Shown here: in pieces, positions 2,119 to 45,419 of the stretch | Layout of the letters: every line of letters begins with the position of its first letter | How positions within the stretch are numbered: the stretch's first letter is position 1 | Source: Candidatus Latescibacterota bacterium | GTDB taxonomy: Bacteria > Latescibacterota > UBA2968 > UBA8231 | NCBI GenBank assembly: GCA_965221775.1 | Contig: CBDCSU010000006.1 | Coordinates: 544,001 to 608,000 of the forward strand | DNA: 64,000 nt | Reading direction: 5' to 3' | The notes under the pieces: generated by a model | Databases searched by the model: none | Seen by the model: only the letters and a program-made list of their open reading frames with translations | What the model was told of the DNA's origin: nothing | Translations under genes and position numbers: made by a program

Positions 2119-2241
2119 TCCTGTCCTCCTACAGGGGATTGAGCGGAAGGGTGTGTTTCGCGGGGAACCGGAAAACGATAGGGCTTCATCCCCGGGCGGG
2201 CCACCCGGAGCGGCGCGGCCCACCCGGGGAAAGCCGGGTCC

Positions 2242-26048: not shown

Positions 26049-26540
26049 ATGAGGGTCTTCGCAACCTGTCTCATCGGACTCGTGGGGGCATGGGCCCATG
26101 CAACGGCAGAGCCCCTGGTCGAAGGCCGGGTGCTCCTGCCCTCGGGCGGGCCCGGGGCCGGGTCGCAGGTGCGGCTGTTCGACCTGACCGATCTTCGTGC
26201 GGCGCCCGTCGGGACGGCCGCGGATGAGTCCGGGCATTTCACCCTCCCTCTCACGGCCTTGCCGAGGCTCGCCCTTCCCGAGCGATTCGAGCTGGGTCGG
26301 CTGGTTTGGGTGGGCCGGGCGGCGTGGGGGGACCGGCCGCAAACGGAGGAGGCGGGGCGCCGGCCCCGGTCTACCGGGTTGACCGTCTCGGGTTCGGGGC
26401 TGGTCCCCTACGTCGACCCGGCCTTCCGGGTGACGGCGGGCATGGCCCCGGGGGAGGTGGTGGTTGGAGACCCCGGGCAGCGCCCCGTCGGCGAAGGTGG
26501 CCTCCGGCGGGATCCCTCGGCGACGTGATGCTCAACGACG
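26049..26540 (+). pseudogene. Internally deleted copy of the secreted-protein header module
   Basis: MRVFATCLIG...VEGRV...QVRLFDLTDLRAAP...DESGHFTL...LPERFELG then jumps to the LTVSG...PYVDPAFRV segment; near-colinear with 40166-40915 but lacks the FlgD-like part and breaks at the dockerin. Confidence 0.8.
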
Positions 26541-26678
26541 GCGCGGGCTCAATCCACCCCGCCGTCATGCCTCGCAAGCTGCGGCAACGTGGCCCGAGGG
26601 AAAGCAAACAAGCAAGTCTTCCGAGAACTCTTGCGAGTGCGGCTCCCGGCTCCAGCCGACAGGCACTCGTTGCCGATG

Positions 26679-27305
26679 TCAGCGCCGGTCATGCGGGAGG
26701 TCGGCCACCGCCATCACCAGCTGCACCAGTTCCACCTGCCGGGAGATTCCCTGCTTTTCGAAGATGTGCTTGATGTGCCACCTGATGGTGGTCACGCTCC
26801 GCCCCGTCGCGGCGGCGATGTCGCGGATGGTCTTTCCCTGCGCCAGCGACACCGCCACCTGGCTTTCCGCCGGGGTGAGGCCGAGTACGGCCCCCACGCG
26901 GTCCGGGTCGATGGCCGCACGGGACGCCGGATCGACAACCAGCACGAGTGCGCCCAGGCGGCCCTGAGTCAGGTCCGTCCCCTCCTCGCTCAGAGGATTG
27001 ACGTGCAGCACGAGGCGGACCCGCCCACTCACCATCATGGAACCGCTCCCTCCAGGTCCGCCCAGAAACGGGAGCGCCTGCGCCAGGAGCCCCTGGAGCT
27101 TCTCGTCCTCCCGAGGGATCGAGGCCTGCAGGAAACCCCTCCGGTCCGACAGCCCGGTTCCTTTGCGCAGGAGTTTGCGCGCATGATCGTTCGCCGTCAC
27201 CACTCGTCCGCGCCGGTCCAGCCGAATGACCCCCGTCCTGTCGTCGTCGAGCACGGCTGCGCGCAACGACCTCAGAATGTGCTCGAACAGATCCTGCCGG
27301 CTCAT
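26679..27305 (-). CDS. LuxR-type helix-turn-helix regulator with a PAS-like segment, probably internally deleted
   Basis: GVIRLDRRGRVVTAN (PAS-like), LGLTPAESQVAVSLAQG...TIRWHIKHIFEKQGISRQVELV. Confidence 0.8.
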   Translation of the reverse strand: MSRQDLFEHILRSLRAAVLDDDRTGVIRLDRRGRVVTANDHARKLLRKGTGLSDRRGFLQASIPREDEKLQGLLAQALPFLGGPGGSGSMMVSGRVRLVLHVNPLSEEGTDLTQGRLGALVLVVDPASRAAIDPDRVGAVLGLTPAESQVAVSLAQGKTIRDIAAATGRSVTTIRWHIKHIFEKQGISRQVELVQLVMAVADLPHDRR

Positions 27306-27369
27306 GGGAATCCGTCTCCAAAACCGGGTCCGCCCCATCTCAAGGCACGACCCCTACCGCATAGGTAGA

Positions 27370-27414
27370 ATGATAGCCTCTCGACTGCCATTTGCACCCC
27401 CCAAAATGGAGGGG
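27370..27414 (-). promoter_or_regulatory. Conserved box plus -10 promoter, copy 1 (upstream of luxR)
   Basis: CCCCTCCATTTTGGGGGGTGC-N18-TATCAT. Confidence 0.65.
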
Positions 27415-27553
27415 AAAGCACCCGCAATTGAGGGTTTTTGGAGGTTTTTCCAAATTCGCCCGCTTTCACGCCACACGCCACATTGTGAGTACCGGAATGC
27501 CGCCACCGCAAGCCCGTGCGCGTGCAGTGCTCTTCTAGGAAATCTACTGCGAC

Positions 27554-27598
27554 CCCCTTCACTTTGGGGGCGGAAAGAGGCGCTCGACTCCTTATGGT
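27554..27598 (+). promoter_or_regulatory. Conserved box plus -10 promoter, copy 2 (divergent from luxR)
   Basis: CCCCTTCACTTTGGGGGCGG-N19-TATGGT. Confidence 0.6.
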
Positions 27599-27619
27599 TT
27601 CCTTGGCGGGGTCGCGCTC

Positions 27620-27920
27620 GTCCGGCGCAGCGGCGGCATCGGCTTCGGGGTGGACTTCGGCATGGCCGGCGTCGGCCACGGACGGGAGGACCACCTTCAG
27701 CGCAGGCATGCTCAACCTCGTGCACTTCATCAGGTGAAGCATCGGATCCCGGCTGGACCCGGTGTGTGCGAGGTGACCAGGCTGAGGGTGACCCGTTTTC
27801 TCGATCCGGACCAGGTACGGGGTAGCCAGTGCCAGGTAGGGGCGGCTGTTCGATCTGCCCGGGGCCCGCCGGGGCGACCGGGGGGCCCCCGGCCGGAGCG
27901 GTTCGCGCTGGGGGCGAATC
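27620..27920 (+). pseudogene. Gene debris: beta-barrel-like C-terminus and a further header fragment
   Basis: GGIGFGVDFGMAGV / TTFSAGMLNLVHFIR* ending 27737, then RLFDL and PERFALGAN fragments at about 27830-27920. Confidence 0.5.
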
Positions 27921-28032
27921 CTGTACTCAGTGACCTCTCAGGTCAGCCCATCGCGCGCTGGATTCCTACCGCTTGTCCGCACCGGACGTCCTCCACGCGA
28001 GATACAGCGCAGCTCGCACTCTTCCTCAATTC

Positions 28033-28078
28033 CCCCTCCATTTGGATGGCGCCAAGAAGCCCTGCACTGCCGTACAAT
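28033..28078 (+). promoter_or_regulatory. Conserved box plus -10 promoter, copy 3
   Basis: CCCCTCCATTTGGATGGCGC-N20-TACAAT upstream of the beta-barrel gene. Confidence 0.65.
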
Positions 28079-28195
28079 GCTATCTCAGCGGATGGCGCCT
28101 AACGGGCGAACCGCCGAATGCCAGGCGGGTGCCAAGGCAGCGAAGAGGGCACGGCAAACCTCCACTCGTCCTCTTCCAACAACGGAGCAGCAGAC

Positions 28196-28975
28196 ATGAC
28201 GAACGCACAACCACTCCTCGTGAGCGTCATGGCCTTGATGGTCATGGCACTCTCCCCCCTATACGGCCAGAGTGCCGAGACCTCAGCTCCCGAGACCCCT
28301 CGATTCACGCTCGGGGTTCAAGGCGCCCTGAGTGCGGCCACACTTGGTGGAGTGGAGGAAAATCAGTTCGGGGACCTCAGCTATCGCTTCAGCCTGGAAA
28401 ACTACCGCGTTTCCGGGACGTTCCCCCTGACCCCAAAATTGGGCCTGCAGCCCAGCGTAGCCTATGTAGCCAAGGGCGCTGCTCAACACTTGGGTATCGA
28501 GGGTGCCGAGGGTGGTGCGTCATACGAGATAAAACTCGACTACATCGAGTTGTCGGCCTTGGGCGTGGCGAGCACGGCTACTCTGGGTAGAAGCAACAGC
28601 GCCGTGTATGCGCTCGCGGGACCGACGCTGGGATTCCAAGCCGGATGCACGGCCGAGGTCACCGATCACCCGGGCGGGGATGACTTCGTAGGTGCCCTTC
28701 TCGAAGCGATGTTGGGAGAACCGCTGGACTGTGGCGATGCTTTCAAGGGCTCGGACTTGGGCATTACTGTGGGTGTCGGCTGGGACTGGCAACCGAAACA
28801 ACCCACTCCTGACATAGGAGTTCTATCGGGGCTGAAGGGTTCGCTGGAGATACTGTACACCCTGGGGCTTCAGTCGATTGCCAGCGACGAGTCTGGGGAT
28901 GGCGGCTCCGTTGTGGGGGGAGACCCCAAGAACCGGGCACTGGTTGTGTGGGTAGGTGCCTCCCTACCCCTCTGA
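28196..28975 (+). CDS. Outer-membrane beta-barrel protein (PorT/porin-family-like)
   Basis: Signal peptide; LQPSVAYVAKG, KLDYIEL, LAGPTLG, DLGITVGVG, YTLGL, KNR...VGASLPL. Confidence 0.75.
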   Translation: MTNAQPLLVSVMALMVMALSPLYGQSAETSAPETPRFTLGVQGALSAATLGGVEENQFGDLSYRFSLENYRVSGTFPLTPKLGLQPSVAYVAKGAAQHLGIEGAEGGASYEIKLDYIELSALGVASTATLGRSNSAVYALAGPTLGFQAGCTAEVTDHPGGDDFVGALLEAMLGEPLDCGDAFKGSDLGITVGVGWDWQPKQPTPDIGVLSGLKGSLEILYTLGLQSIASDESGDGGSVVGGDPKNRALVVWVGASLPL

Positions 28976-29178
28976 ATCGGCAGGGCTTGGTGGACGGGGC
29001 AGCCTGACGCGGCGGTTCTGTCCCTCAAGGGGAGAGCGCGTTTCTCCACCTCAAACTCGGCGAGGAGAGACGCCCTCTTCACGCGGAGTTACAATCTCAG
29101 ATGAATAAGCCTTCAAAGAGTGCAACCTGTTGACCTTCAATGTGAAAGTCGTCCCCCCTCCAAGAGGAGAATTCTCTG

Positions 29179-30297
29179 ATGAAGGAGACTCAATTTTGGC
29201 TCCTGCCTCTCTTGTGGCTCTCTCCCCTGCTTATAGGCTGTGGTACTAAGGCAGTTTATCTCACGGTGACACGTCCGGCCGAGGTCAACCTCAGAGACTT
29301 CGACAAAATCGCGGTCGGAGAAATCAAGGTGCACGGGAGCGCCGTTTTCTCCGAGGAGTTGATGCAGGCCCTCTTTGACTCCGAACGATTCGAAGTGCTG
29401 GACCACGAGAGCCTGAAAATGGCCCTCAGCCAGAACGACCTCGTCATGAGCACTCTGATGGAAGGGGACAGTGAAGAGGAAATCAGGAGGATCTTCGGCA
29501 ACATTGCGCTCATCTCCGGCAATATTACAGGGTACGAGTACGACGAGAATTTGACCTCCACAACAAGCGAAAAGAAGGATAAAGAGACGGGCAAGGTCAC
29601 CACCACGCGAACCTACAAACGTACGGGAACCGCAAGAGTAGGCGCCAGCCTGCGGATCATGGACTTGCGGACGGCAAGAATCTTGGCAACGAAGAACCTC
29701 ACCAGGTCCAAGAGTGCGAATAGAACGAAAACGAATTCCCGACCGGGACGAATAGATTCCTTGGCCCTCTTTCGGAACTGTAGAGCGCAGATCATCAGCT
29801 CCTTTATGCGGGTGATTGCCCCCTATACCGAGCGGGTGCAGGTGTCCTTTGAGACCGCCAAGGAGATGCCGGAATTGGAACGGGGGTTCAATTTGGCCAA
29901 GCTGGGCAATTGGGATGCCGCGATCGGCATCTTTGAAGAGGTGACTCGGGCGTACTCCAGTTCTCCTGTAGTCCACAAGGCCTACTATAATCTCGGTTTG
30001 AGTTACATGTACTCGGATCGATTCGACGAGGCAAAAGCTGCATTGGAAGAAGCCTATGTCTCAAAACCGGAGAGAAAGTACAAGAAGGCCATCGACGAAC
30101 TTGATGTGCGCATCGAAGACACGCGTCGGCTGGAAGAGCAACGACGGGTTGATCCAGAAGCAGCGGAAGGCGACGGAGCACCCGTGGAGGAGCAAGAACA
30201 GCCGGATGCAGAGGGAAGCGATGGCGACCCCATGGAGATGCAGGGTCAACCCGAGGCAGAAGGAACGGTTACCGAACCCATGAAGGACCAGAGGTAA
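29179..30297 (+). CDS. Lipoprotein with CsgG-like domain, TPR and acidic repeat tail
   Basis: Lipobox LLIGC; FEVLDHESL segment; TPR KAYYNLGLSY; three approx. 16-aa acidic repeats at the C-terminus. Confidence 0.75.
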   Translation: MKETQFWLLPLLWLSPLLIGCGTKAVYLTVTRPAEVNLRDFDKIAVGEIKVHGSAVFSEELMQALFDSERFEVLDHESLKMALSQNDLVMSTLMEGDSEEEIRRIFGNIALISGNITGYEYDENLTSTTSEKKDKETGKVTTTRTYKRTGTARVGASLRIMDLRTARILATKNLTRSKSANRTKTNSRPGRIDSLALFRNCRAQIISSFMRVIAPYTERVQVSFETAKEMPELERGFNLAKLGNWDAAIGIFEEVTRAYSSSPVVHKAYYNLGLSYMYSDRFDEAKAALEEAYVSKPERKYKKAIDELDVRIEDTRRLEEQRRVDPEAAEGDGAPVEEQEQPDAEGSDGDPMEMQGQPEAEGTVTEPMKDQR

Positions 30298-30312
30298 GGG
30301 AGGAAGGCACGC

Positions 30313-31275
30313 ATGAGTTGCAGGAGACTATTGGGGCTCCTTGGTGCAGGCATTCTGGCGGGGTGTGGCAGCGAGGAGCCAGTCGGTCCCGAGGTCGGCC
30401 GCCTGCGAGCCACCCTGGACGAACATGAAGCTGCGGTCACGTCCGTGGCGTTCTCCCCGGATGGCATTACTCTGGCGAGTGCCAGTTTTGACAGCACGAT
30501 CCGGTTGTGGAGTGCGGAAACCGGCCAGATCAGAGCCGTCCTCAAGGAGGACTGGAGCGGCGACTTCACTTCCGTAGCCTTCTCGGCGGATGGGAGACTC
30601 GTGGCTGCCGGCGGGGGAGACCGGGCCGTCCGCGCCTGGAGAGTGGACACCACCGAACGTTGGTGGACCTTCTGGGATCACGAAGATTGGGTTCGGTCGA
30701 TTGCGTTCTCCCCGGATGGCAACCTCTTGGCGAGCGGCAGCGACGACGAGACCGTGAGACTGTGGGGAGACCGCCGGGTCACTCTCAGGGGACACGAAGG
30801 CCCTGTCTGGTCGGTGGCGTTCTCCCCGGATGGAACCCTGTTGGCCAGTGGCAGTGACGATCAGGACATCCGCCTCTGGGAGGTGGAGACGGGCTACCAG
30901 AGAGGCACCCTGGCCGGGCATTCGGACCGGGTCGCTTCCGTGGCGTTTTCTCCCGACGGCAACCTGCTGGCCAGCGGCAGTGGAGATCGGACGGTCCGCT
31001 TGTGGGATGTTGCGACCGGCCAACAGAGAGATTCGCTCAAGGGCCATGGGGGTGCTGTCTGGTCAGTGGCCTTCTCCCCGGATGGGAGCACCCTGGCCAG
31101 CGGCAGCTCCGACGATAAGATCCGCCTGTGGGATGTGGCTACCGGCGAACCCAAGGGGGCCCTGACCGGACACAGGGATTGGGTGCGTTCGGTGTCATAT
31201 TCTCCGGATGGTACCACTCTGGCCAGCGGCAGCAACGACGGCACGATTCGGCTTTGGGATTTGACCTCGCCATGA
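30313..31275 (+). CDS. WD40-repeat lipoprotein (7-bladed propeller)
   Basis: Lipobox LAGC; seven GH..V.SVAFSPDG..LASGS.D..RLWD-type repeats. Confidence 0.93.
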   Translation: MSCRRLLGLLGAGILAGCGSEEPVGPEVGRLRATLDEHEAAVTSVAFSPDGITLASASFDSTIRLWSAETGQIRAVLKEDWSGDFTSVAFSADGRLVAAGGGDRAVRAWRVDTTERWWTFWDHEDWVRSIAFSPDGNLLASGSDDETVRLWGDRRVTLRGHEGPVWSVAFSPDGTLLASGSDDQDIRLWEVETGYQRGTLAGHSDRVASVAFSPDGNLLASGSGDRTVRLWDVATGQQRDSLKGHGGAVWSVAFSPDGSTLASGSSDDKIRLWDVATGEPKGALTGHRDWVRSVSYSPDGTTLASGSNDGTIRLWDLTSP

Positions 31276-31349
31276 CAAGAGACCCAAGGCGCCCGGTGGC
31301 TGTAGCGGCCTTCAAGAGAAGCCCTTGGTCCTGGGCGGCGATGCGGTTT

Positions 31350-31614
31350 CTAGCCCAATACCCCCAACCCCTTCAACAGCCGCACCCTGCTCGCCTACCG
31401 CCTGGCCGCCCCCGGAGTGGTGCGGCTCGAGCTCTACAATGCCCTCGGACATCGGGTGCACACACTGGTGCATCGGTTCCAGGCCGCCGATGAATACCAA
31501 GTCGCTTGGGACGCCCGCGACGGCCAGGGGTCGGCGGTTTCCTCGGGGATGTACCTGACGCGACTCCACTACCCAAACGGCGTGCAGACTCGGCGGTTGC
31601 TTCTCCTCAAGTAG
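31350..31614 (+). pseudogene. Orphan FlgD-Ig/sorting-type C-terminal domain fragment
   Basis: PNPFNSRTLLAY...VRLELYNALGHRV...WDARDGQG..VSSGMYL...QTRRLLLLK*; no credible start. Confidence 0.75.
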
Positions 31615-31897
31615 GGCCGCCCCGGTTTCGGCGTGTCACCGTGCCAGGCCGTCCTGGACCTGATTCCCCATCGCCTGCTTGGCACCGTCCTCGTCCAGTG
31701 ACCAGCTCCATGGGATCAGGCGATGATTCGCTCTCCCTGCTCCACAGGCCCTGGCTCATCCGCGGCATCGACCAACCTGCTGCCGGGGTCTGTTCGGGAC
31801 ACCCGGGATTGGGACTGCCACCCACAACCCGGTCAGAGAGGTCACAGACCAGCCCGGTTCGTACCAGATCCTTCCTGACAGTGGAGGGATACACCCA

Positions 31898-34800
31898 ATG
31901 CAAGTCCCCACTCTTCGTCCCGCCATCCTGGCCTTCATCGCCCTCCTCAACTCGCTGGCCGGGGTCGTCCACGCTTCGCCCCCGCCCACCCACAGCGTGC
32001 ATCTCTCCATACCGTTCGATCACGAGCACGGAGAGGGTGACCACCCCCGCTCCGCAGCCAAGAGGACAGCCGATCTGAACGTGGGCGCACCCCGCACGGT
32101 GCGGATGATCTACTTCCTGCCCAACGATCGCCCCTTTCGCCAGGAAGTGGTGGATTCGATGAAGACCCTGATCAAGGAGGTTCAGACTCTCTATGCCGAT
32201 CAGATGGGGGCCCACGGGTACGGCGGCAGGACCTTCCGCTTCGAGACCGATGCCCAGGAGGAACCGCTGGTGCATCGGGTGGATGGGCAGCACCCCGACA
32301 GCCACTATCTCGATGCCGCTACCGTGGAGGACGAGGTCCGACAGACCTTTGATCTCCGCAGCAACGTCTACTTCATCGCCATCGACAACAGCATCGAGAC
32401 AATCAGGAGCGATGGTCACTTTGTGGCTGGTGTAGGCGGTCGAACGGGAAAGAACGGTGGTTTGGCACTCGTTCCAGACGAATTCGACTTCCGCACCGCA
32501 GCCCATGAACTGGGCCACGCCTTTGGTTTGCAGCACGATTTCAACGAGGACGCCTACATCATGTCGTATGGGAGCGATCCGGACCGGCTGTCCGCATGCC
32601 ACGCCGAGTTCCTGGCCGTGCATCCCTACTTCAATGCTGATGTTGATACACAGGATGGGGTACCACCCACCATCGAACTCCTCTCCTCGCGCGGATTCCC
32701 GGAAGGATCGGAAACCGTTCCCGTCCGGCTCGAAGTCACTGATCCGGACGGTCTGCACCAGGTGATTCTGTTCGTCCGGCCAAGCGGATTGCTGGTGATA
32801 GGCATTCCCTCCCTGTTTCCCGAGGTGAAGGTGTGTGACGGTTTGGCGGGGGCAAGGGAAGCTACCATCGAGTTCGACTATGATGGCAACATTCCATCCT
32901 CCGGCTCAACGGGCCAGCTTGTTCGGGGCGTGCACCAGATGCACGTCGCTGCGGTGGATGTGGACGGGAATGTCGGCTGGACGTCCTTTGACCTCGCGGA
33001 GCTGTCGCCGCACCATGTCAACACCCTGGAGGGACATGGGAGTCGGGTCACTTCGGTGTCCCTCTCGCCCAACGGGACCACCCTCTCCTCGGCTTCTTCG
33101 GACGGCACGGTCCGGCTGTGGGACGTGGAGACCGGCGCGGTGACCAGAACCTTCGAGGAGTCCGCCTCCTCGGTTGCCTTTTCGCCCGACGGGACCACCC
33201 TGGCCACCGGCACGTCGAGGGGCAGCATCCGGATCCGGGAAGTGACGGCCGGGGCAACGCTCGCCACCTTGGAGGGGCATACGGGTCCGGTGACCTCGCT
33301 CTCCTTTTCCCGGGATGGGACCTGGCTTGCCTCCGGCTCCGATGACCACACGGTCAGAGTGTGGCATGCGGCCACCGCCGCACCGGCCGCCAGGATGGAA
33401 GGGCATACGAGTCCGGTGACGTCGGTGTCGTTCTCGCCGGATGGGACCCTTCTTGCCTCCGGCTCGGAAGACAAGACCATCTTGGTGTGGGGTTTCGACC
33501 CCGTCGCCCCCCCCTCGATCCTGCCAGGACATGCAAGCTCGGTGACGTCGGTCTCCTTTTCGCCCGACGGCGCCACGGTAGCTTCCGGGTCAAAGGATGG
33601 AACCATCCGAATCTGGGATGTGGAGACTGGCGCGACGGTCGCCACCCTGGAGGGCCATTCGGGTCCGGTGACGTCGGTGTCGTTCTCACCGGGTGGGGGG
33701 GTCCTGGCTTCCGGATCGCAGCACAAGATACTCTCGGTCCGGCTGTGGGATGTCCTGACGGGGAGGGATATCGCCACTCTCCACCATACGGGTCTGCCCA
33801 CCTCGGTGTCCTTTTCCGCCGATGGGACCGCCCTGGCCTCCGGCGCACAGGATGGCACGATCGAGCTGTGGGATGCCTCCGAGTGGACGCGGCCTCGCCC
33901 GAAGAGGCTGGCGAAAGTCTCCGGCGATGATCAGCAGGGCACCCCGGGCGCCGCCCTGGCCAGTCCCCTGGTAGTGGAGGTAAGAGATCAATACGGCAAC
34001 CCCCTGCCCGATGCGCAAGTGACGTTTGCTGTGACCGGCGGGAGTGGTTCGCTCGACGGGAAATTCACCATTGTCAACGCGACGACCGATGACGACGGCC
34101 GGGCCGAGACGATCTTAACTCTTGGCTTCGTGGAGGGGCTGAATACGGTGGGGGTGTCCATCGCGGAGGTTGAACTGTTGACCTTCAGTGCGATGGGGGT
34201 CGGAACGCCCGAGGTCCCGACCCTGGAGGGGGGTGTTCATACGTGGCACCTGCCCGATGGAACGACCACGCGCCTGGGAAGAGGATCCCTCAGTGATCGG
34301 GAAGGAGCGATTGCCTTCTCGCCCGACGGTCAGCTCCTGGCGGTGGCAACTGGCATTGGCATCTGGCTGTACGAGGCAGAGACAGCGCACGCCGTGGCAC
34401 TGCTGCCCGTTACTGGACGGGTCTGGGCGGTCTCCTTTTCCCCCGACGGCACCCGGCTTGCCTCAGGGGTCAGTACGTACTTTGGCGGCAGGGGTGACAG
34501 TTTTGTCCAGTTGTGGGACGTGACGACGAGAGAGATTGTCGCCACGCTCGGCGGGGGCATGGAAGCAGCCCGGACCTCCTTGTCCTTTTCCCGGGACGGC
34601 TCAACCCTCGCTTCAGGAGGAGAAGGCTTCGTCGACCTCTGGGATGTGGCGACGGGGGCGCCTATCGCCACCTTCCAGGACAACGAGGGCCCCGTGTCGC
34701 TTACTCCCGACGGCAGGACTCTCGCCTTCGTATCCAGTGACAACACCATCCAGTTGCGGGACGTGGCGACGGGAGAGCTTGCCGGCACCCTCGAAGGGCA

Positions 34801-37072
34801 TACCCACTGGGTCCGAGGGATTGACTTTTCACCTGACGGAACAACCCTCGCGTCGGCCTCCCTGGATGGCTTGGTGCAACTGTGGGACGTGGCGACGGGG
34901 CAGAGCATCGGCACGCTCCGGCACACGAATTGGGTCCATTCCGTGTCGTTCTCCCCCGACGGCAAGACCCTCGCCTCGGCGTCCCTGGATTTCGAGGGGA
35001 GCGACGTCAAGCTGTGGGACGTGGCTGCTAGAACGCAGATCGCCACCCTCGAGGGCTGGCCCGCCCATCAGGCCACCTCGGTATCCTTTTCTCCCGATGG
35101 CGCAGTCGTCGCCTCCGGGTCCGTGGGCACGGTGCTGTTGTGGGATGTCGGGACCGGGAACGTCCTCGCCATCGAGGGGCATACGGAGCAAGTCCACTCG
35201 ATTTCTCTCTCGCCGGATGGCAAGACGCTCGCACGGGCATCAAGCGATGGAATCGAGTTGCTGGACCCAGCAACCGCGGAAACCATCCTCATGATCGAAC
35301 GGGGCAACGTCCAGAAGGTGTCTCTCTCGCCCGATGGGAGCATCCTGGCCACCGAGTCTCACTTGTGGGACGTGGAGAGCGGAGAGATCATCGCCAACCT
35401 CGAGCCCGACATCTTCGGTGGGACCGTGGCGTTTTCTGCGGATGGTACGACCCTTGCCTCGACGCGACAGAGCGGAGACATCAGGCTGTGGGATGTGGCT
35501 TCAGGGAGTCTTGCCAGGACCCTGTCCGGCCACTCGGCCCTGGTCTTCTGGCTGTCGTTCTCAGCCGATGGCGCCACTCTCGCTTCCGGGTCCAGATGGG
35601 ACGGAACGATCCGGCTGTGGGACGTGGCGACCGGCGAGAGTACGGCCACCCTCGAGGAGGATGTCCGCTGGGTGTCGCTGTCGCCCGACGGCACCATCCT
35701 GGCTGCTGACTTGAGGTGGGGCCCGATGTTGTGGGACGTGGAGACGTGGACCCAGATCCCCGGCCCCCAGGGCAATGTCAGCTCGATGGCCTTCTCGCCC
35801 GATGGCACGATCCTCGCCCTGGCAGGGCTGGATCTGGTCACTCTCTGGGATGTGGCGGCAAGAGAGACTATCGCCACCCTTTCCGGGCATACCCATGGGG
35901 TTGACTTGCTGTCTTTTTCGCCGGACGGCACCACCCTTGCCTCCGGGGCAAGGGATGGCACGGTCCTGCTGTGGGATCTGCAGCTCCTGCAGCCGCATCC
36001 CCAGACGCTGACCAAGGTCTCGGGGCTCGAACAGCAGGGTCCGGCCGGCGCGCAACTGGGCGAGCCCTTCGTCGTGGAGGTCAGAGACCAGAACGGCAAT
36101 CCCTTCGCCGGGGCGACCGTGACCTTCGCGGCTACCGCCGGCGACGGCACCCTCTCCACGACCACCGCCACCACCGATGCCGAGGGCCGGGCGGCCACGA
36201 CCCTGACCCTGGGAAGCGAGCCCGGGGCCAACACCGTGGAAGCAACCGTCGACGGACTGGAGCCGGTGACCTTCACCGCCACCGGACTGGCGGTTCCCCG
36301 GACACTGACCAAGGTCTCCGGCGATGAGCAAGAGGGACCGGCGGGAGCCGCCCTGCCGGAGCCGTTCGTGATCGAGGTGAGAGATCAGAACGGCAACCCG
36401 TTTGCCGGAGCCACTGTCACCTTCTCGGTCACCGCCGGCGAGGGCACCCTCTCCGAGACCACCGCCGCCACCGACGCCGAGGGCCGCGCCACCGCCACCC
36501 TGACCCTGGGCCGCACCCCGGGGCCGAACACCGTCACCGCCAACGTACCCGGCCTCGACCCGGTCACCTTCACCTCCACCGCCGAGGCGACTCCCGACTT
36601 CGACGGCGACGGCGAGACCGGCTTCGACGACTTCTTCCTCTTCGCCGAAGCCTTCGGCGGCAGCGACCCCCGCTTCGACCTCGACGGCAACGGCACCGTC
36701 GACTTCGACGACTTCTTCCTCTTCGCCGAGGCCTTCGGCCAGCCCGCCCGGGCCAAGCTGCTGGCCCTGGCCCGAGAGCGGCTCGGCCTGCCCGACGGAC
36801 CCCAGCTGCAGCAGAACACCCCCAACCCCTTCAACAGCGGAACCGTCATCTCCTGGTTCCAGCTGGAGCCGGGTCCCGCGCGCATGGAGGTGTTCGCCCT
36901 CACCGGCCAGCGGGTGGCGGTGCTGCACCAGGGACCGGAGAAGGCGGGGGTCCACCGCCTTCGCTGGGACGGCCGCGACGACCAGGGCCGCCCCCTGGCC
37001 AGCGGCGTCTATGTGTACCGGTTAGTGACGTCCGAAGCCGTGCAGACGCGCAAGCTCACCCTGCTTCGGTGA
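31898..37072 (+). CDS. Large secreted protein: metzincin peptidase, WD40 propellers, Big_1 Ig-like domains, dockerin/EF-hand-like repeat, FlgD-Ig C-terminal domain
   Basis: Signal peptide; HELGHAFGLQH plus IMSY Met-turn; about 20 WD40 repeats; three VEVRDQ.GNP Ig repeats; duplicated DFDGDG/DLDGNG..FDDFFLFAEAFG; PNPFNS...WDGRDDQG...SGVYVYRL. Confidence 0.9.
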   Translation: MQVPTLRPAILAFIALLNSLAGVVHASPPPTHSVHLSIPFDHEHGEGDHPRSAAKRTADLNVGAPRTVRMIYFLPNDRPFRQEVVDSMKTLIKEVQTLYADQMGAHGYGGRTFRFETDAQEEPLVHRVDGQHPDSHYLDAATVEDEVRQTFDLRSNVYFIAIDNSIETIRSDGHFVAGVGGRTGKNGGLALVPDEFDFRTAAHELGHAFGLQHDFNEDAYIMSYGSDPDRLSACHAEFLAVHPYFNADVDTQDGVPPTIELLSSRGFPEGSETVPVRLEVTDPDGLHQVILFVRPSGLLVIGIPSLFPEVKVCDGLAGAREATIEFDYDGNIPSSGSTGQLVRGVHQMHVAAVDVDGNVGWTSFDLAELSPHHVNTLEGHGSRVTSVSLSPNGTTLSSASSDGTVRLWDVETGAVTRTFEESASSVAFSPDGTTLATGTSRGSIRIREVTAGATLATLEGHTGPVTSLSFSRDGTWLASGSDDHTVRVWHAATAAPAARMEGHTSPVTSVSFSPDGTLLASGSEDKTILVWGFDPVAPPSILPGHASSVTSVSFSPDGATVASGSKDGTIRIWDVETGATVATLEGHSGPVTSVSFSPGGGVLASGSQHKILSVRLWDVLTGRDIATLHHTGLPTSVSFSADGTALASGAQDGTIELWDASEWTRPRPKRLAKVSGDDQQGTPGAALASPLVVEVRDQYGNPLPDAQVTFAVTGGSGSLDGKFTIVNATTDDDGRAETILTLGFVEGLNTVGVSIAEVELLTFSAMGVGTPEVPTLEGGVHTWHLPDGTTTRLGRGSLSDREGAIAFSPDGQLLAVATGIGIWLYEAETAHAVALLPVTGRVWAVSFSPDGTRLASGVSTYFGGRGDSFVQLWDVTTREIVATLGGGMEAARTSLSFSRDGSTLASGGEGFVDLWDVATGAPIATFQDNEGPVSLTPDGRTLAFVSSDNTIQLRDVATGELAGTLEGHTHWVRGIDFSPDGTTLASASLDGLVQLWDVATGQSIGTLRHTNWVHSVSFSPDGKTLASASLDFEGSDVKLWDVAARTQIATLEGWPAHQATSVSFSPDGAVVASGSVGTVLLWDVGTGNVLAIEGHTEQVHSISLSPDGKTLARASSDGIELLDPATAETILMIERGNVQKVSLSPDGSILATESHLWDVESGEIIANLEPDIFGGTVAFSADGTTLASTRQSGDIRLWDVASGSLARTLSGHSALVFWLSFSADGATLASGSRWDGTIRLWDVATGESTATLEEDVRWVSLSPDGTILAADLRWGPMLWDVETWTQIPGPQGNVSSMAFSPDGTILALAGLDLVTLWDVAARETIATLSGHTHGVDLLSFSPDGTTLASGARDGTVLLWDLQLLQPHPQTLTKVSGLEQQGPAGAQLGEPFVVEVRDQNGNPFAGATVTFAATAGDGTLSTTTATTDAEGRAATTLTLGSEPGANTVEATVDGLEPVTFTATGLAVPRTLTKVSGDEQEGPAGAALPEPFVIEVRDQNGNPFAGATVTFSVTAGEGTLSETTAATDAEGRATATLTLGRTPGPNTVTANVPGLDPVTFTSTAEATPDFDGDGETGFDDFFLFAEAFGGSDPRFDLDGNGTVDFDDFFLFAEAFGQPARAKLLALARERLGLPDGPQLQQNTPNPFNSGTVISWFQLEPGPARMEVFALTGQRVAVLHQGPEKAGVHRLRWDGRDDQGRPLASGVYVYRLVTSEAVQTRKLTLLR

Positions 37073-37149
37073 CGGTTTGCCCTGACCACGCGATCCGGGC
37101 GAGGCAGGAAGAGCGCCCTGCGCCGAGCACACGGCGGATGCCCCGACGG

Positions 37150-37212
37150 TGTATGTACGTGCTCCACTACCCGGCGGGAATGCAGACGCGGTGGTTGCTA
37201 CTCCTCAAGTAG
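37150..37212 (+). pseudogene. Second orphan FlgD-type 3' end
   Basis: LHYPAGMQTRWLLLLK*; 37162-37213 matches 31564-31615 at 43 of 52 nt by eye. Confidence 0.6.
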
Positions 37213-37281
37213 GAGCAAAGGGCGTTCCTCCACGCGCACCTTCCCGTGCTCCGGTGAGTTCCCGCCTGATTTCTTGAGATC

Positions 37282-37326
37282 CCCCTCCATTTGGATGGCG
37301 CCAAGAAGCGCCCGCTTGCGTATGGT
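37282..37326 (+). promoter_or_regulatory. Conserved box plus -10 promoter, copy 4
   Basis: CCCCTCCATTTGGATGGCGC-N19-TATGGT; first 28 nt identical to copy 3. Confidence 0.7.
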
Positions 37327-37416
37327 GAGTGGCGCCAAGATTCGCGGCTACCTGTCCGACCCCGGCCGCGGGTCTTTGTCTGTCACCACTTCCGACATAG
37401 CTCAGAAAGGCCAAAG

Positions 37417-40051
37417 ATGAAGCGAGTTGTCTCCGCCAACTCGGATCGCAAACCAATCTTGCCCCCCCTGCTCCTTGCAGCCTGGATGGCCGCTGCGCCG
37501 ACCGACGCCGTGCCGCAGGTCGAGGGCCGAGTGCGGCTGTCGTCCGGCGAACCGGTGGTCGGGGCCCAAGTGCGGCTCTTCGACCTGGACGATCTGCGAG
37601 CGGCTCCGTTGACGGCGACCACGGATGAGTCCGGGGGCTTCCAGCTGTCCCTGGAGGGCTTTCCGGCAGGCCGGTCCGCCCTGCCGGACCGTTTCGACCT
37701 GGGGCTGAACTATCCCAATCCGTTCAACCCGTCCACGGTCATCCCCTACCAGCTGCCGGTTTCGACCGATGTGCGCCTGGACGTGTTCAACGTCCTGGGT
37801 CAGCGGGTGGCGACGCTGGTCAACGGCGTGCAGCCCGCCGGCTATCACACGGCTCGCTGGGACGCTACCGATGGGGCCGGCCGGGCCGTGGCCGCCGGGG
37901 TCTATCTCTACCGGCTGCGAGGCGGCGGCGTCACCCTGACGGAGCGCATGGTGCTGGTCGACGGACAGGCCGGCGTGGCGGCGCCCTCGGGAGAGCGGCA
38001 GGGGGCGGCTTCCCAGCGGGCGCCTTCGGCGATCTACGGCCTGACCGTCTCGGGACCCGGGATGGTCGCCTACGTGGATCCGGTTTTCCCGGTGGCCCCC
38101 GCCGCCGGGCTGGTGGACGTGGTGGTCCAGGCCTCGAGAGACGTCCCTCGAGCGAAGACGGCCTCGACAGAGACGGGGGTGTTGGGCGACGTGGACAACA
38201 ACGGCCGGGTCAACATCGCCGACGCCCTGCTGGTGCTGCTGTACAGCGCCGATCCGACCACCGTCATGCCCAACGACGGCGACATCTCCCAGGGCGACGT
38301 CAACGCCGACGGCCGCGTCGACCTGTCCGACGCCTGGCTGATCGCCAGCTACACCATCGACCCGACCGATCCGCTGCTGCCGGCCGGGATCGGGGCGCCG
38401 GTGGGGGTGGTCGCCCCGACGAAGATCTACTGGACGGACTGGCACTCAGACAAAATTCGGCGTTCGAACCTGGACGGCTCCAGCGTCGAAGATCTCGTCA
38501 CGGGAGTGGATTCCCCAAACGGGCTGGCTCTGGATATGGTGGGCGGCAAGATGTACTGGACGGACCGGAACACCGGAAAGATCCAGCGAGCCAACCTTGA
38601 CGGCTCCAGCGTGGAAGACTTGGTGGCCACCGGATTGAGCTCTCCCTGGGGACTGGCCTTGGACGTAATGGGAGGAAAGATGTACTGGGTGGACTATGGA
38701 ACGAATAAGCTCCAAACGTTCAAACCTCGACGGCTCCGGCGTCGAAGACCTGATCGCCACCGGACTGAGAACCCCCGAAGCGGTGGCCCTGGATGTGGTC
38801 CGCAGCCAGATGTACTGGACCGACCGGGGGACCGACAAGATTCAGCGTTCGAACCTCGACGGCTCCAACATCGAAGACCTCGTCACCACCGGACTGATCG
38901 ACCCTCGGGGACTCGCGCTGGACGCCGCGGAGGGCAAGCTCTACTGGGCGGACCCGAGCACCGACAAGATCCAACGCGCCAACCTGGACGGGTCACAGGT
39001 GGAAGACCTCGTGGCCACAGGACTGCGGGGTCCCGTGTGGATCGCCCTGGACACGCCCTCCGCGTCAGCCGACCACGGGGACAGCCGCTCGTCGGCGACG
39101 CCGGTCGCTTCCGGGAGTGAGACGCCCGGCGAGTTGGAACCAGACGATGTCGACTACTTCCGCGTGGAGGTCGCCGAGGCGGGGGTCCTGATCGTCGCCT
39201 TCACCACCGGCAATCTGGACACCTACGGCTACATCGAGGACAGCTCCGGCAACGTCCTCGCGAGCAATGACGACGGGGGACAAAATGCCAACTTCCGGGT
39301 GACGGCCACGGTGGATGCCGGCACCTACTACATCCGAGTTCGTGGCTTCGGAAACAGCCAGACCGGCCCCTACACCCTGCATGTGGAAGTGCATGAGCCT
39401 GACGATCACGGGGACACCCGCTTGTCGGCGACGCCGGTCGCTTCCGGGAGTGAGACCCCAGGCGAGCTGGTGCCTGGGGATGTCGACTACTTCCGCGTGG
39501 AGGTCGCCGAGGCGGGGGTCCTGATCGTCGCCTTCACCACCGGCAATCTGGACACCTACGGCTACATCGAGGACAGCTCCGGCAACGTCCTCGCGAGCAA
39601 TGACGACGGGGGACAAAATGCCAACTTCCGGGTGACGGCCACGGTGGATGCCGGCACCTACTACATCCGAGTTCGTGGCTTCGGAAACAGCCAGACCGGC
39701 CCCTACACCCTGCATGTGGAAGTGCATGAGCCTGACGATCACGGGGACACCCAGTCGACCGCCACTCTCGTAACCATCCCGAGTACAACCCCAAGCGTCC
39801 TGGACGCCGGTGACGTCGATTACTTCCGGGTCGTCGTCACCAAGTCGCGCACCCTGGTAGCCTATACGACCGGCAACCTCGATACCGTCGGCTCCCTCTA
39901 TGACGGCACGGGGGCGTGGCTCGCCGGCAATGACGATTGGGGGGATGCCAACTTCCGCATCTCGCACTCTGTCCAGCCCGGCACCTACTACCTCCGTGTC
40001 GCAGGCTTCTCCTCCTCAACGACCGGCCCTTACACCCTGCATGTGAGGTAG
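37417..40051 (+). pseudogene. Secreted header-module protein with dockerin, YWTD (LDL-receptor class B) propeller and three PPC-like domains; +1 frameshift
   Basis: Frame 1 runs to KMYWVDYGTNKLQ; extra A at 38714-38716; the next frame resumes RSNLDGS; DHGD...DVDYFRV...NDDGG repeats follow. Confidence 0.85.
39146..39752 (+). repeat. Intragenic tandem duplication, 333-bp period
   Basis: 39146-39419 appears identical to 39479-39752 (one 111-aa PPC-like unit). Confidence 0.9.
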
Positions 40052-40165
40052 ACAGGCCCACGTTGTCTCATCTCGCAGAGGAGACAGGAGAATGGTGACG
40101 TCCGCTGCAGGCCAGCCATTTGCCGCCGCGGCCCTCTGGGCCAAGCTGGCGGAGTAGAGGCAGAA

Positions 40166-43100
40166 GTGAAGGCGGTCAGAGTCTGTCTCGTCGGGCTGAT
40201 GGCATGGAACCATGCGGCGGCCGATCCGCGGCTTGAAGGCCGGGTGCTGCGGACTTCCGGGGAGCCCCTGGCCCGAGCGCAGGTGCGGCTCTTCGATCTG
40301 GCCGATCTGCGCGGAACCCCGAACGCCGTGACCACGGATGAGTCGGGTCGCTTCACGCTCCACCTCGGAACCTTGCCGGGGCTGGCCCTGCCCGAGCGGT
40401 TCCAACTGGGGGCGAACTACCCCAATCCGTTCAACCCCTCAACCCTCATCCCGTATCAGCTTCCAGCCGCGATGCACGTGCGCCTGGAGGTGTTCAACCT
40501 CCTGGGGCAGCGCATCGCCACGCTGGTCGACCGGGAGCAGCCGGCCGGCTTTCACACCGCGGAGTGGGACGCCACGGACGCGGCAGGACAGGCGGTGGGG
40601 GCCGGGGTCTATCTCTACCTCCTGAGCGGCGATGGCGCGAAGATCACCCGCCGGATGCTGCTGATCGACGGGCAGGCGGGGATCTCGTCGGCTGGTTCGG
40701 GAGGGCCGGGCGGCGTGGGAGGACCAGCCGCAGCGGAGGAGGCGGGGAGACGGCCCCGGTCTACGGGTTGACCGTCTCGGGCCCGGGGCTGGTCCCCTAC
40801 GTCGACCCGGCCTTCCGGGTAGAGGCGGGCATGGCCCCGGTGGAGGTGGTGGTCCAAGCCCCGGACAGCGCCCCCTCGGCGAAGGTGGCCTCCTCCGGGA
40901 TCCTCGGCGACGTCGACAACACGAGTCATGTCGATTTCTTCGACGCCCTGCTGGTGGCCCTGCACAGCCAGGACGCCAGCATCGTCATGCCCAACAACGG
41001 CGACATCTCCCTGGGCGACGTCAACGCCGACGGACAGGTCGACCTGTCCGACGCCTGGCTGATCGCCGCGTACCTCAACGATCCCTCCGATCCGTCGCTG
41101 CCGGCCGGGATCGGCGAGTCAGTCGGTCCGGCCGCTTCCCTGTCGCCGGATCCTTCGACGGTCACCTTCGCCGATGACGGGGCCTGGCACCGGTTCACGG
41201 TCCAGACCGGCGAGCCGGTCTCGGTGGTGGTCAATCCGGCGGGGACGCCCCGTGCGCTGGAGATCACCACCCGAAGCGGGCGCGGCAACTACTGCCCCGC
41301 CGAAGCCGACGACGGCGCCACCCGCCGGGACGGCCAGACGATCTACCTGTCCGGGTGCGCCGCGGGCGAGGCCACGCTGGAGTTGCGGCGGGAGTCGGAC
41401 GGCACCGTCCTGCGGACCTACACCTTCGAGGTGACCGGCAGCCCGGCGGACCTGGTCGTGCAGTCGGTCTCGGTCAGCGACAGCACCCTGACGCCGGGTC
41501 AATCCTTCACCCTGAGAGCCACCGTGCGCAACCAGGGCACGGCTGAATCGGCGGCCACGACCTTGCGCTGGTACCGCTCGTCCAACCGGACGATCTCCAC
41601 GCGGGACACGGAAGTGGGAACCGACGCGGTGGGGGCCCTGGGCGCTTCCGGCTCCAGCGCCGAGTCGATCCGCCTGAGCGCTCCGTCAAGTGCGGGCACG
41701 TACTACTATGGCGCCTGCGTGACCAGCGTTGGCGGAGAGAGGGCCGGCAACAACTGCTCCCGGGGAGTCCGCGTCAGGGTGGAAGCCGAGAGTCCGGACC
41801 TCGTCGTCGAATCGGCTGTGGTCAGCGACAGCACCCTGACGCCGGGGCAGTCCTTCACCCTGAGCGCCACGGTGCGCAACCAAGGCACGGGTGCGGCGGT
41901 GGCCACCGCCCTGCGCTACTACCGCTCGACGAACGCGACGATCTCGACGCGAGATTCGGAAGTGGGCACCGACCCGGTGGACGCCTTGGCCGCTTCCGGC
42001 ACCAGTGCCGAGTCGATCAACCTGACGGCCCCGTCGGGTGAAGGCACCTACTACTATGGTGCCTGCGTGGCCCCGGTGGACGGAGAAGTCGATCCCGGGA
42101 ACAACTGTTCTCCTGCAGCAGCTCTATCCGTCAGCATTCAAGACGACGACGCTCTGAGTTCGCCTCCACCGACCTGGGTGTTTTCGGGAGATGTGCCGGA
42201 GGCCCATAAAGCGGAGTTGCGCGAGGAGATGGAATACGTCCGTACCTGGTTCGCCGACCAATACGGTTTCGAAGCAACTGGCTTTACGGTGCTGGTCAGT
42301 GCCAACTATGAAGCACTCTCCCCGACGTACCCGGGCGTAGTCGGTGCAGCGCTCTCCAACCACTACCACCCGCAGGCAAAGTTCCCATACGCTTGGGTTA
42401 CGCGATCTGCAACGGGTGGTGCCGTGATGGCGCTGATGTACGGGACTCTCTCTGATGAGCCTCTCTCTACCCTCAAACATCACATCGCCCACGAGTACTT
42501 CCACGTTCTGCAGGGACAACTTGCTTCAGGATTCGCACAACTGCCGGATGGCGAGATCGCCTGGCACAGTGACGCATCCTCTCGTGGCCCCAACTGGCTG
42601 GTGGAAGGCTTGGCTTCCTATGCCGACTACGCGTACACCCCAAGCAGAGCCGGACGCAGGCCCTTTCTGGGGGACCGGTACTACCCCTACAACGACTTAC
42701 AATGGTTCTATCTGAATGAGTCGGTTACCATAGGTGATCTGGCAGAGCTGGGGAGCTATCTGGATTTCAAGTGCACCTTTTCTGACAACTACTCCTACCC
42801 TCTGAGTTTTGCGGCATCCGTTTTCTTGCTTGAGCAGGCCCAGGCAGACTCGTATGTGAACTACTGGACGCTCCTTGGCGAGCGGTCGACTTGGGAGCAG
42901 GCGTTCGAGGAAGCCTTCGGAGTCCGTGTCAGTGACTTTTACGCTGCCTTCGATGAGTGGCTTCCCTCCCAGTTGCCTCCCCTTGCCCAACTCAAGCTGC
43001 AGATGCGCTGGCCGGACATGGAGAGCCTGCCCCAGACGTGGAGATTCCTCTATCTCAATATCGAGAACTGGGGAACTTGGGAGAGTAGAAAACCCTCTAA

Positions 43101-43386
43101 CCTCAGTACGGGATGGACCGGGCTGAGGGGCCTGCCCCTGCAAATGACTGCCACATACGATGAGGGTGCCGTCGGGTCAGGCTACCTTTCCCTCTGGTGG
43201 TCTGACGACCAATGCACCGCGTATCTCCTTGGTTGGTACAGAGATGGCGAGCTCACCAGTCGGCGCGAGGATGCTACGGCGGTAGAGTTCACTGGCAGGT
43301 CAGCCACCATCGATTGGAACATTCCTGGACATCCGGATACGCTTCCTCGATTGCAGGAAAGAGAAAGAGTGCCAGGATGCAAGTAG
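40166..43386 (+). pseudogene. Secreted header-module protein with dockerin, two CARDB domains and a gluzincin-like peptidase; -1 frameshift
   Basis: ORF 40166-40771 joins ORF 40564-43386 near 40732; the paralogous 26049 copy has the missing base (GCCGCAAACGGAGG vs GCCGCAGCGGAGG); DLVV...TVRNQG CARDB x2; HEYFH...WLVEGLASY. Confidence 0.85.
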
Positions 43387-43568
43387 GTCCATGTATACTC
43401 TACCCAGCTGCATGAAACCTACGCGGAATTGCGCAGGTAGGCACTCTAGTCTTGACCCCTCGCTCGCAGCTTAGGCGCGCAGTGCGATGGGTCCGGAAGC
43501 GGCGAGATGGCGCGCCAGCGCAGCCACGGCATCAGTCCCTCCTTCTCCCATTCACGAAAGGGGAGCGC

Positions 43569-45352: not shown

Positions 45353-45419
45353 CTCAAGAGGCGGCGATCCCCACAGAGCGGCCGCCTCGGGCCGACTCGC
45401 AGGGGACGTAGATGACGCC
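45353..45419 (-). repeat. Degenerate copy of the 3' end of the Gfo/Idh/MocA gene
   Basis: 58 of 67 nt identical, ungapped, to 46512-46578 including the stop codon. Confidence 0.85.

Follow-up and report, generated by a model that had tools for sequence, protein, structure and literature searches.

We analysed a 64,000-nucleotide stretch of a Candidatus Latescibacterota genome (assembly GCA_965221775.1, contig CBDCSU010000006.1, positions 544,001 to 608,000; hereafter the window, with positions counted from its first letter), in which several genes begin with one conserved N-terminal region, here called the header. The header comprised, in order, a putative signal peptide, a transthyretin-like sandwich split by a complete type IX secretion system (T9SS) type-A C-terminal domain (CTD), and a type I dockerin, ending at the motif LPxGIG, behind which stood one of many different payloads. 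The header probably serves as a Latescibacterota-specific N-terminal cassette for T9SS targeting and anchoring. It hints at a mode of surface-protein export or anchoring not described before, and no description of a dockerin header from Latescibacteria was found in the literature searched.

Header architecture and the split sandwich domain

Two full header genes lay in the window, named copies 3 and 4 by their order among the header sites, with the following features.

37417..40051, + strand: full header gene, copy 3; behind the header, YWTD (Ldl_recept_b) repeats followed by 3 PPC domains (open reading frames (ORFs) and Pfam)
37417-39120 and 38696-40051, + strand: the two reading frames of copy 3, split by one extra base near 38712-38717
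37513..37656, + strand: copy 3 sandwich N-half (transthyretin-like, CarboxypepD_reg), residues 33-80 (Pfam profile 1-43 of 82 and VIA-align)
37417..37512, + strand: copy 3 signal-peptide-like N-terminus, residues 1-32 (by eye: basic start, hydrophobic stretch, small residues ahead of VEGRV)
37687..37965, + strand: copy 3 complete T9SS type-A CTD insert (FlgD-Ig-like), residues 91-183 (TIGR04183; PorU CTD match)
38029..38139, + strand: copy 3 sandwich C-half (YGLTVSGPG...YVDP.F...), residues 205-241 (AlphaFold2 strands 206-237 complete the sandwich)
38176..38394, + strand: copy 3 type I dockerin, calcium-loop segments GDVDNNGRV and GDVNADGRV (Dockerin_1, 30.2 bits)
38377-38394, + strand: LPAGIG junction closing the copy 3 header
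40166..43386, + strand: full header gene copy 4; header (40166-41115), a 'LSPDPSTVTFADDGAWHRFTV' domain without a name, 2 CARDB domains, C-terminal HExxH region
40166-40771 and 40564-43386, + strand: the two reading frames of copy 4, split by a missing base near 40732

In both copies Pfam identified CarboxypepD_reg (profile positions 1-43 of 82 only), FlgD_ig and Dockerin_1; in copy 4 the CarboxypepD_reg half and FlgD_ig fell in the first frame (40166-40771), and the dockerin, both CARDB domains and the HExxH region in the second (40564-43386). The CarboxypepD_reg match (PF13620) of copy 3 reached 28.5 bits against a cut-off of 32.3, a low score over half a profile that is explained by the domain being split, and one header paralogue reached 33.1 bits. 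The insert, which opens with NYPNPFNPST and closes with RMVLVDG, scored 34.3 bits against TIGR04183 (cut-off 23), the type-A sorting-domain model (family also PF18962), of whose 72 positions it covered 2-70. All eight intact paralogues matched it too, at residues ~81-178 (26.1-42.5 bits; positions 2-70, or 2-67 in one), and NCBIfam detected no second sorting domain in copy 3 or in any of these eight. Dockerin_1 (PF00404) lay above its cut-off of 22.9 bits in copy 3, and the Asp/Asn positions of the calcium loops were invariant in header alignments. Across ten aligned headers, identity to copy 3 was 52-80% (mean column identity 66%), a Sec signal peptide could be read by eye in all ten, and LP.GIG ended all but two.

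An AlphaFold2 model of the header, built on an 89-sequence alignment, had a mean predicted local distance difference test score (pLDDT) of 83 and a predicted template modelling score of 0.67, with low confidence at residues 1-3, 191-200 and 247-249 and, for copy 3, in the signal-peptide region, where a short helix was placed at 18-24. When the model was searched with VIA-align against 48,161 PDB chains, the best match was the transthyretin-like domain of human carboxypeptidase D (5aq0_B, Z 11.3, root-mean-square deviation 1.9, 80/82 residues aligned); a second transthyretin-like chain, 1qmu_A, followed at Z 10.6. The 80 residues aligned to 5aq0_B were spread over 209 (model 33..241), as expected of a split domain. 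Into the gap fell the CTD of PorU (6za2_B, model 91..183, Z 9.3), the best CTD match to the insert, and FlgD (104..174, Z 8.0), while dockerin chains matched 254..324 (Z 8.7-9.8; 8ajy_D 9.8, 4fl4_A 9.6); the top Foldseek matches were the RgpB CTD, PorZ and PorU. The predicted model thus has a seven-stranded transthyretin-like fold and supports insertion of a CTD into it, bearing out the sequence-only reading of this DNA, which had proposed a FlgD-type domain inside a carboxypeptidase-regulatory-like sandwich, followed by a dockerin-like pair.

Embedded and tail CTDs and the secretion machinery

Hidden Markov models (HMMs) cut from the header were run on all stop-to-stop ORFs of the genome (5.36 Mb, 6 contigs, ~70% GC). 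A CTD lay no more than 25 amino acids (aa) from the stop in 82 ORFs, and non-terminal CTD matches numbered 12, comprising 11 header genes and one partial match. In a quick maximum-likelihood tree of 88 segments, in which many forks were unresolved, the 11 header CTDs formed one clade (Shimodaira-Hasegawa-like approximate likelihood ratio test support 89), nested among the tail CTDs on a short branch. The insert is therefore a genuine CTD from the genome's own set, captured once. The header-derived dockerin HMM found no header-type dockerin ahead of the tail CTDs (0/82 ORFs); it matched the 11 header ORFs only, and tail cassettes of dockerin plus CTD that would mirror the header were rejected as candidates.

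T9SS-like genes, for which the sequence-only reading had suggested a search, were present. SprA (2192 aa) scored above its cut-off, as did two PorU proteins above the curated one. Beside one PorU gene lay a PorV-like gene (148 bits, under a Bacteroidota-trained cut-off of 250), and close homologues of its product carry the name PorV/PorQ family protein and come from Candidatus Latescibacterota. In two other families of the phylum (f3 and f4), PorU-like matches were weak and partial (E ~1e-63 to 1e-83, profile 5-737, proteins of ~1900 aa) and SprA was found in 4/4 of their genomes examined; these families may use a different or strongly diverged attachment sortase.

We modelled the PorV-like protein (residues 21-346, 43-row alignment) together with the header (residues 30-245, 89-row alignment). 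The complex scored 0.86 in three runs, against 0.00 for the best of three controls; the mark that serves as a benchmark was reached by 116/157 solved complexes and by 2/215 mismatched pairs. The runs agreed in at least 86% of contacts, with a partner pLDDT of at least 76. Confident header contacts (97-102, 104, 108, 110, 124-131, 152, 156-162, 164, 166, 175 and 177-183) all fell inside the CTD insert and none in the sandwich. They included NYPNP, FN.LGQ and RM.L.DG, the segments in which the 89-sequence alignment has its invariant or almost invariant columns, and the invariance of M178, L180, D182 and G183 beside a low-confidence linker may be explained by these predicted contacts. Structures of SprA-PorV-CTD complexes have been solved, and that report describes a nearly invariant basic residue near the CTD end that touches PorV (PMC10994853); in an alignment by eye, header R177 occupies this position. 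The modelling supports binding of the embedded CTD to the PorV-like protein.

Family range, payload swapping and the window copies

A tblastn search with the header found 11 full copies in the genome, plus a remnant and ~70 CTD-only matches; eight paralogues were intact at 755-1317 aa. An hmmsearch with a 10-row header profile against 1.84 billion representatives returned 2455 proteins at E<=1e-30; among these, the lower-scoring ones are probably CTD-only. Among the best 150, which we examined, lengths ran from 247 to 3936 aa, and the match started within the first 50 residues in nearly all, the exceptions being fragments, proteins with longer called starts, or two proteins with 14-15 tandem CTD repeats (P0133 and P0150), which were dropped. 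The match reached the end of the header profile in 146/148 kept representatives (156/158 with ten proteins of the genome itself). A PNPF motif was found in the last 130 aa of none of the 150, and none of 38 cluster members examined carried a family name in its source database.

Across 168 species genomes of the phylum, the header was found in 78 at E<=1e-40 and in 41 at E<=1e-89. The window's own family accounted for 49 matching genomes out of 75, with up to 13-15 matches per genome, counts that are lower bounds because no more than 13 candidates were scored, and copies often stood in arrays. We also checked five named genomes, a sample far too small for a claim about range. The nearest by rpoB (78% identical), a Candidatus Latescibacterota metagenome-assembled genome (MAG), had a dockerin-less cassette (query 7-230). 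The others had rpoB identities of 59-66%: in the Zixibacteria, KSB1 and Calditrichia genomes the matches listed ended by query ~215 and were of CTD type only, and the Gemmatimonadota genome gave one listed match (76-300) without the N-half and with two in-frame TGA codons, and no clean full cassette. A contig-wide header scan was rejected as evidence of range; its 80 kept loci (78 distinct) matched only within query 37-220, the scan being swamped by the NYPNPFNP pattern of ordinary CTDs of other phyla of the Fibrobacterota-Chlorobiota-Bacteroidota group. One locus from a different family of the phylum, L096 (G040:C1:811135-814869), encoded a 344-aa protein (ORF 1204-2238, minus strand) whose header is close to that of the window's family, is cut ahead of the dockerin and is joined to a tail of immunoglobulin-like (Ig) repeats and a dockerin-like segment; this tail resembles the end of window gene 31898-37072 without its CTD, and L096 may be a recombinant or transferred gene.

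Dockerin-less cassettes (profile ~5-256) stood ahead of FGE-sulfatase or PD40 payloads in genome G011, from another family of the phylum (at least 10 copies), and in the Candidatus Latescibacterota MAG, and one genome encoded a 252-aa header-only protein. The CTD-in-sandwich unit is thus the conserved core.

Payloads differed widely. In nine other full copies of the genome they included YWTD repeats alone or with PPC, WD40 or an Ig domain. One paralogue carried PD40 and three CARDB domains by Pfam, followed in its sequence by PPC and an HExxGH metallopeptidase region, and others combined an un-named 'LSPDPSTV..DDGAWHRFTV' domain with CARDB plus Ig domains or a peptidase-like end. The un-named domain, of ~100 residues, follows LPAGIG in copy 4 (41116-41440) and recurs in L011, L014, L015 and many of P0003-P0046. 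Its pattern is 'LSPDPSTV.F.DDG.WHRFTV...NP.GTP..LEIT...C....DG..IYL.GC..G.A.LELRR..DG.VLRTYTF.V', with two conserved cysteines, and it had no Pfam or NCBIfam match. In 58 database representatives searched with Pfam at E<=1e-7, at least 13 payload families were found: YWTD in 13, PD40 in 11, PPC and CARDB in 9 each, leucine-rich repeats (LRR) in 6, WD40 and FGE-sulfatase in 4 each, PQQ-type propellers, VWA and Peptidase_M8 in 2 each, and ankyrin, WG repeats, and fn3, cadherin and PKD together (one 3936-aa protein) in 1 each; five representatives gave no payload match at this level. Pfam found no toxin family among the payloads of the 9 own and 58 database proteins, and immunity genes were not looked for.

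We compared the first 200 payload residues of 146 proteins all against all, counting pairs at E<1e-5 as related. Where headers shared at least 80% identity (57 pairs), payloads were related in 53%, against 11% at 50-60% header identity, a contrast inflated by clustering of the library at 50% identity, which removed similar pairs. Pairs with 82-90% identical headers and unrelated payloads did occur. At the DNA level, copy 4 and paralogue L010 were 88-92% identical in the header and 48% within ~25 nt past the junction, confirming the abrupt divergence after LPAGIG that the sequence alone had shown. Copy 3 and L008 were 97-100% identical across the dockerin but fell to 58-68% immediately past it, a pattern suggestive of header gene conversion. 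The idea of a constant header with interchangeable payloads is thus upheld by the 11 copies, the payload families and the near-identical headers with unrelated payloads. Of the recombination proposed with it, shuffling at the junction stood and free recombination did not: header subfamilies still track payload classes, so that header and payload histories are partly congruent, and the history reads as duplication, divergence and shuffling together. Contig joints between the copy 3 and copy 4 headers were rejected as evidence of payload swaps between strains; the joint sides were only 21-34 letters long, and the joints probably reflect repeats or paralogues.

Both long window copies carried a one-base frameshift in the present assembly, a feature absent from the sequence-only reading: an extra A in 'caaacg' near 38712-38717 in copy 3 and a base missing from a GC-rich run near 40732-40746 in copy 4. 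The stretch 37300-43400 was present in runs of nine studies, several labelled sponge metagenome and none among those listed an RNA data set, and we compared contigs of four sequencing runs with the window. Contigs of run X1 were identical to the window across both sites, an agreement that is not fully independent because X1 may be the source data of the assembly. One X5 contig lacked one base at 38716, and an extra G behind 40732 was carried by 16.1 of 16.1 depth in X8 and 4.1 of 7.81 in X5, with none in X1. Copies 3 and 4 are therefore intact in related strains and shifted here. As the X1 contigs reproduce the window exactly at both sites, the frameshifts are probably real in the source population, a recent loss of two members and not a family-wide artefact. 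A third full copy elsewhere (C6 near 2076520) was also frame-shifted, and rpoB, SprA, PorU, the 1724-aa neighbour described below and the eight header paralogues served as intact controls. Copy 3 also contained a 333-bp tandem duplication (two copies, 92-96% matches, window 39070-39828) that encodes two near-identical PPC domains; X1 contig cover was absent at 39136-39339, as expected for a collapsed repeat.

The remaining features around the header genes were as follows.

26049..26526, + strand: remnant copy 1, signal peptide and both sandwich halves, disturbed frame (DNA alignment to copy 4)
26679-27338, minus strand: LuxR/GerE-type regulator gene, 219 aa, directly behind remnant copy 1 on the opposite strand
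27838..27918, + strand: candidate decayed header fragment (QVRLFDL...LPERFxLGAN region), marginal (short nucleotide matches)
28118-28975: OMP_b-brl_2 outer-membrane barrel
29179-30297: CsgG-like/TPR protein, lipoprotein-like N-terminus by eye
30313-31275: seven-blade WD40 protein, lipoprotein-like by eye
31898..37072, + strand: conventional tail-CTD cargo, 1724 aa; WD40 arrays, Ig-like repeats, C-terminal type-A CTD (TIGR04183 at residues 1641-1720)

Of the four header sites first proposed, the remnant at 26049 and the copies at 37417 and 40166 held up, and the fragment near 27830 was marginal, with a 31-nt match (84%, E 2e-4), a 24-nt match (87.5%, E 3e-3) and nothing longer in a 2.9-kb search. 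Remnant copy 1 matched copy 4 on both sides of a deletion (26066-26296 with 40183-40410, 72.7% nt identity; 26296-26526 with 40687-40913, 89.6%); the deletion removed the 276 nt encoding the CTD insert, and the sequence ends past LGDV. The proposed payloads were likewise found as YWTD and PPC in copy 3 and CARDB in copy 4, whereas the proposed HExxH peptidase of copy 4 amounts to the motif and weak language-model leads. That region had no Pfam or NCBIfam match, its single match among PDB sequences was at chance level (E 0.52), and a language model pointed to clusters of Peptidase_M61, M9 and MA_2 (MA clan, 0.90-0.92), which are leads only.

Gene 31898-37072 ended in a CTD, as the sequence-only reading had stated. 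The protein also has the zinc-metallopeptidase motif HELGHxxGLxHD at its N-terminus, two long arrays of WD40, intimin-like Ig repeats and a weak GC-type dockerin-like pair (24.4 bits, under a cut-off of 29); the gene shares payload types with the header family yet uses the ordinary tail signal. The three envelope genes at 28118-31275 lie between the header remnants and this gene. Directly behind copy 4 stood a PD-(D/E)XK nuclease-family gene (43664-44632) and, further on, part of a transposase of the Mutator family (IS256-type; 44878-45411, profile 74-223 of 379). GC content, ~70% elsewhere, dipped at 28-30 kb (58%) and at 42-44 kb (57%); as these dips, the nuclease and the transposase fragment adjoin the header genes, the stretch is patchy and probably mobile or recently rearranged.

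Proposed export and anchoring, and comparison with known systems

If the header acts as a T9SS cassette, as we think probable, Sec export would deliver a protein with a small transthyretin-like sandwich at its mature N-terminus, one loop of which would carry the complete canonical type-A CTD on two flexible linkers. The PorV/SprA translocon would recognise the embedded CTD like a tail CTD and move the payload across the outer membrane. Because it is not C-terminal, the tag would probably be retained or processed differently, so that the payload is held to the cell surface by its N-terminal end. In the window's family a dockerin would have joined the cassette and may provide a second attachment that depends on calcium, and duplication and recombination at LPxGIG would have set repeat, binding and peptidase payloads behind one cassette. 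A more specific form, which we regard as unlikely, is that T9SS accepts cargo through a non-C-terminal CTD and that the sandwich embedding is itself the anchoring device, giving two-chain display. PorU would cut the linker ahead of the embedded CTD and couple the N-half of the sandwich to a surface glycolipid, and the CTD, the C-half, the dockerin and the payload would stay by non-covalent completion of the sandwich; sponge symbionts could in this manner present eukaryotic-like binding domains tethered at their N-termini.

Several points weigh against a role of the header in T9SS export. To our knowledge, it is an established rule that the T9SS signal is a C-terminal domain, and no internal or N-terminal T9SS signal was described in the T9SS and Latescibacterota literature searched. 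With the two motor and ring models tried on the genome, GldM gave no match and GldK nine, none above its cut-off. Three genomes with strong header matches (G040, G042 and G087) had weak, partial PorU-like matches, with SprA present. Three of the 11 full header copies were frame-shifted, and, as a SprA-PorV-CTD complex has been solved, the score of the modelled complex may reflect the insert's likeness to a type-A CTD rather than binding here. The C-terminal rule and the undetected motor components would also fit an insert that has lost its secretion role, with the proteins periplasmic or otherwise released and the header a stalk or folding module before the repeats, the more so as FlgD-Ig and transthyretin-like folds are common modules and many unrelated chains reached Z 8-10 in VIA-align. 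We give this reading a small share of the probability; the insert keeps the hallmarks of tail CTDs over the whole TIGR04183 model and above its cut-off, it branches shortly inside the tail-CTD clade, and its invariant residues, conserved across at least 89 diverged sequences, are the predicted PorV contacts.

The dockerin could instead plug into a cohesin scaffold anchored by its own tail CTD, as in a cellulosome, with the CTD-like insert merely a structural Ig module. All ten Dockerin_1 matches of the genome lay in header genes, the dockerin fold is well supported, and the single Pfam cohesin of the genome belongs to a protein (at least 935 aa) that also has a lamin-tail domain and ends in a CTD. 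However, Pfam cohesins, found in 136/168 genomes of the phylum and widespread in genomes without the header, were missing from 28/78 header-positive genomes. In genus g13 this held for 24/26, including closed or single-contig genomes with 10-13 header matches (eight g13 negatives and four others were deduced from tallies rather than from listed entries), and divergent cohesins invisible to Pfam are conceivable. The dockerin-less cassettes that carry payloads in other families also count against such a scaffold, as does the outer-membrane crossing of header proteins, which it leaves unexplained. A cellulosome-like display is accordingly about as improbable as a lost secretion role, and the cohesin scaffold that the sequence-only reading had envisaged is not supported as a general anchor; from sequence comparison, the dockerin seems to be an add-on and a cohesin not generally required. 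It is very improbable that the window copies are dead genes or assembly errors with nothing functional at the locus. The frameshifts in both long copies and in the third full copy elsewhere, and the two remnants, would agree with it, but eight paralogues are intact, related strains in other runs lack both frameshifts, and the exact match of the X1 contigs makes it probable that the shifts are real and that two members were lost recently.

What marks a protein for the T9SS is, by definition, its C-terminal domain, a position on which cargo prediction and the sortase-type attachment model both rely. Here a large natural family keeps a canonical, strongly conserved type-A CTD near the N-terminus and within a second domain, and cargo predictors that expect a tail misread such proteins; if they are exported, the translocon reads a folded domain and not a terminus, which opens the question of whether CTD position is part of the T9SS signal at all. 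The header may likewise be a candidate surface route for the eukaryotic-like repeat proteins (WD40, LRR, ankyrin, YWTD, fn3/cadherin) of sponge-associated Latescibacterota, and a ready-made modular display scaffold. The header proteins may be displayed on the surface and may interact with a sponge host, as could be expected from the sponge-metagenome runs and the eukaryotic-like repeat payloads. Ankyrin, LRR, NHL, WD40, fn3, PQQ and other eukaryotic-like domains were reported in 10/10 sponge-associated Latescibacterota MAGs, in a paper whose available text mentions neither secretion nor dockerin (0 occurrences each; PMC12993501).

The header shares with canonical T9SS type-A cargo, such as RgpB of Porphyromonas gingivalis and RemA/RemZ of Flavobacterium johnsoniae, the CTD family and fold, the logic of signal peptide, CTD and passenger, and a genome with SprA, PorU and a PorV-like protein. 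It differs in that its CTD lies at ~90-185 of 750-1300 aa, inside another domain and with the passenger after it; header proteins have no tail CTD, and the usual removal of the tag by PorU cannot work. PorU and PorZ are T9SS components that retain their own CTDs and are held on PorV and PorQ. They set a precedent (6za2, 5m11) in that their type-A CTD is not cut off and tethers them permanently to a PorV/PorQ-family barrel, although their CTDs are C-terminal and they are single-copy machinery parts that do not exchange passengers. Type I dockerin proteins, cellulosomal or not, have the same fold with two calcium loops and the same use of one docking module with many catalytic or binding modules; unlike them, the header places its dockerin N-terminal to the payload and, where present, always behind the CTD-in-sandwich unit, its payloads include no carbohydrate-active enzymes, and cohesins are missing from many header genomes. 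The TANFOR-domain toxins of Bacteroidetes, as described in the available part of PMC7073777, resemble the family in a constant N-terminal trafficking-type region, variable C-termini, multiple copies and arrays, whereas no toxin domains occurred among the header payloads examined and the constant region of the header consists of known secretion and anchoring domains. The N-terminal extension of SusC-type transporters has the same small sandwich at the mature N-terminus (9hfj_A, Z 10.3; 6ytc, Z 8.1); there it is uninterrupted and precedes a TonB-dependent barrel, whereas the header sandwich has a CTD set into it and soluble domains behind it.

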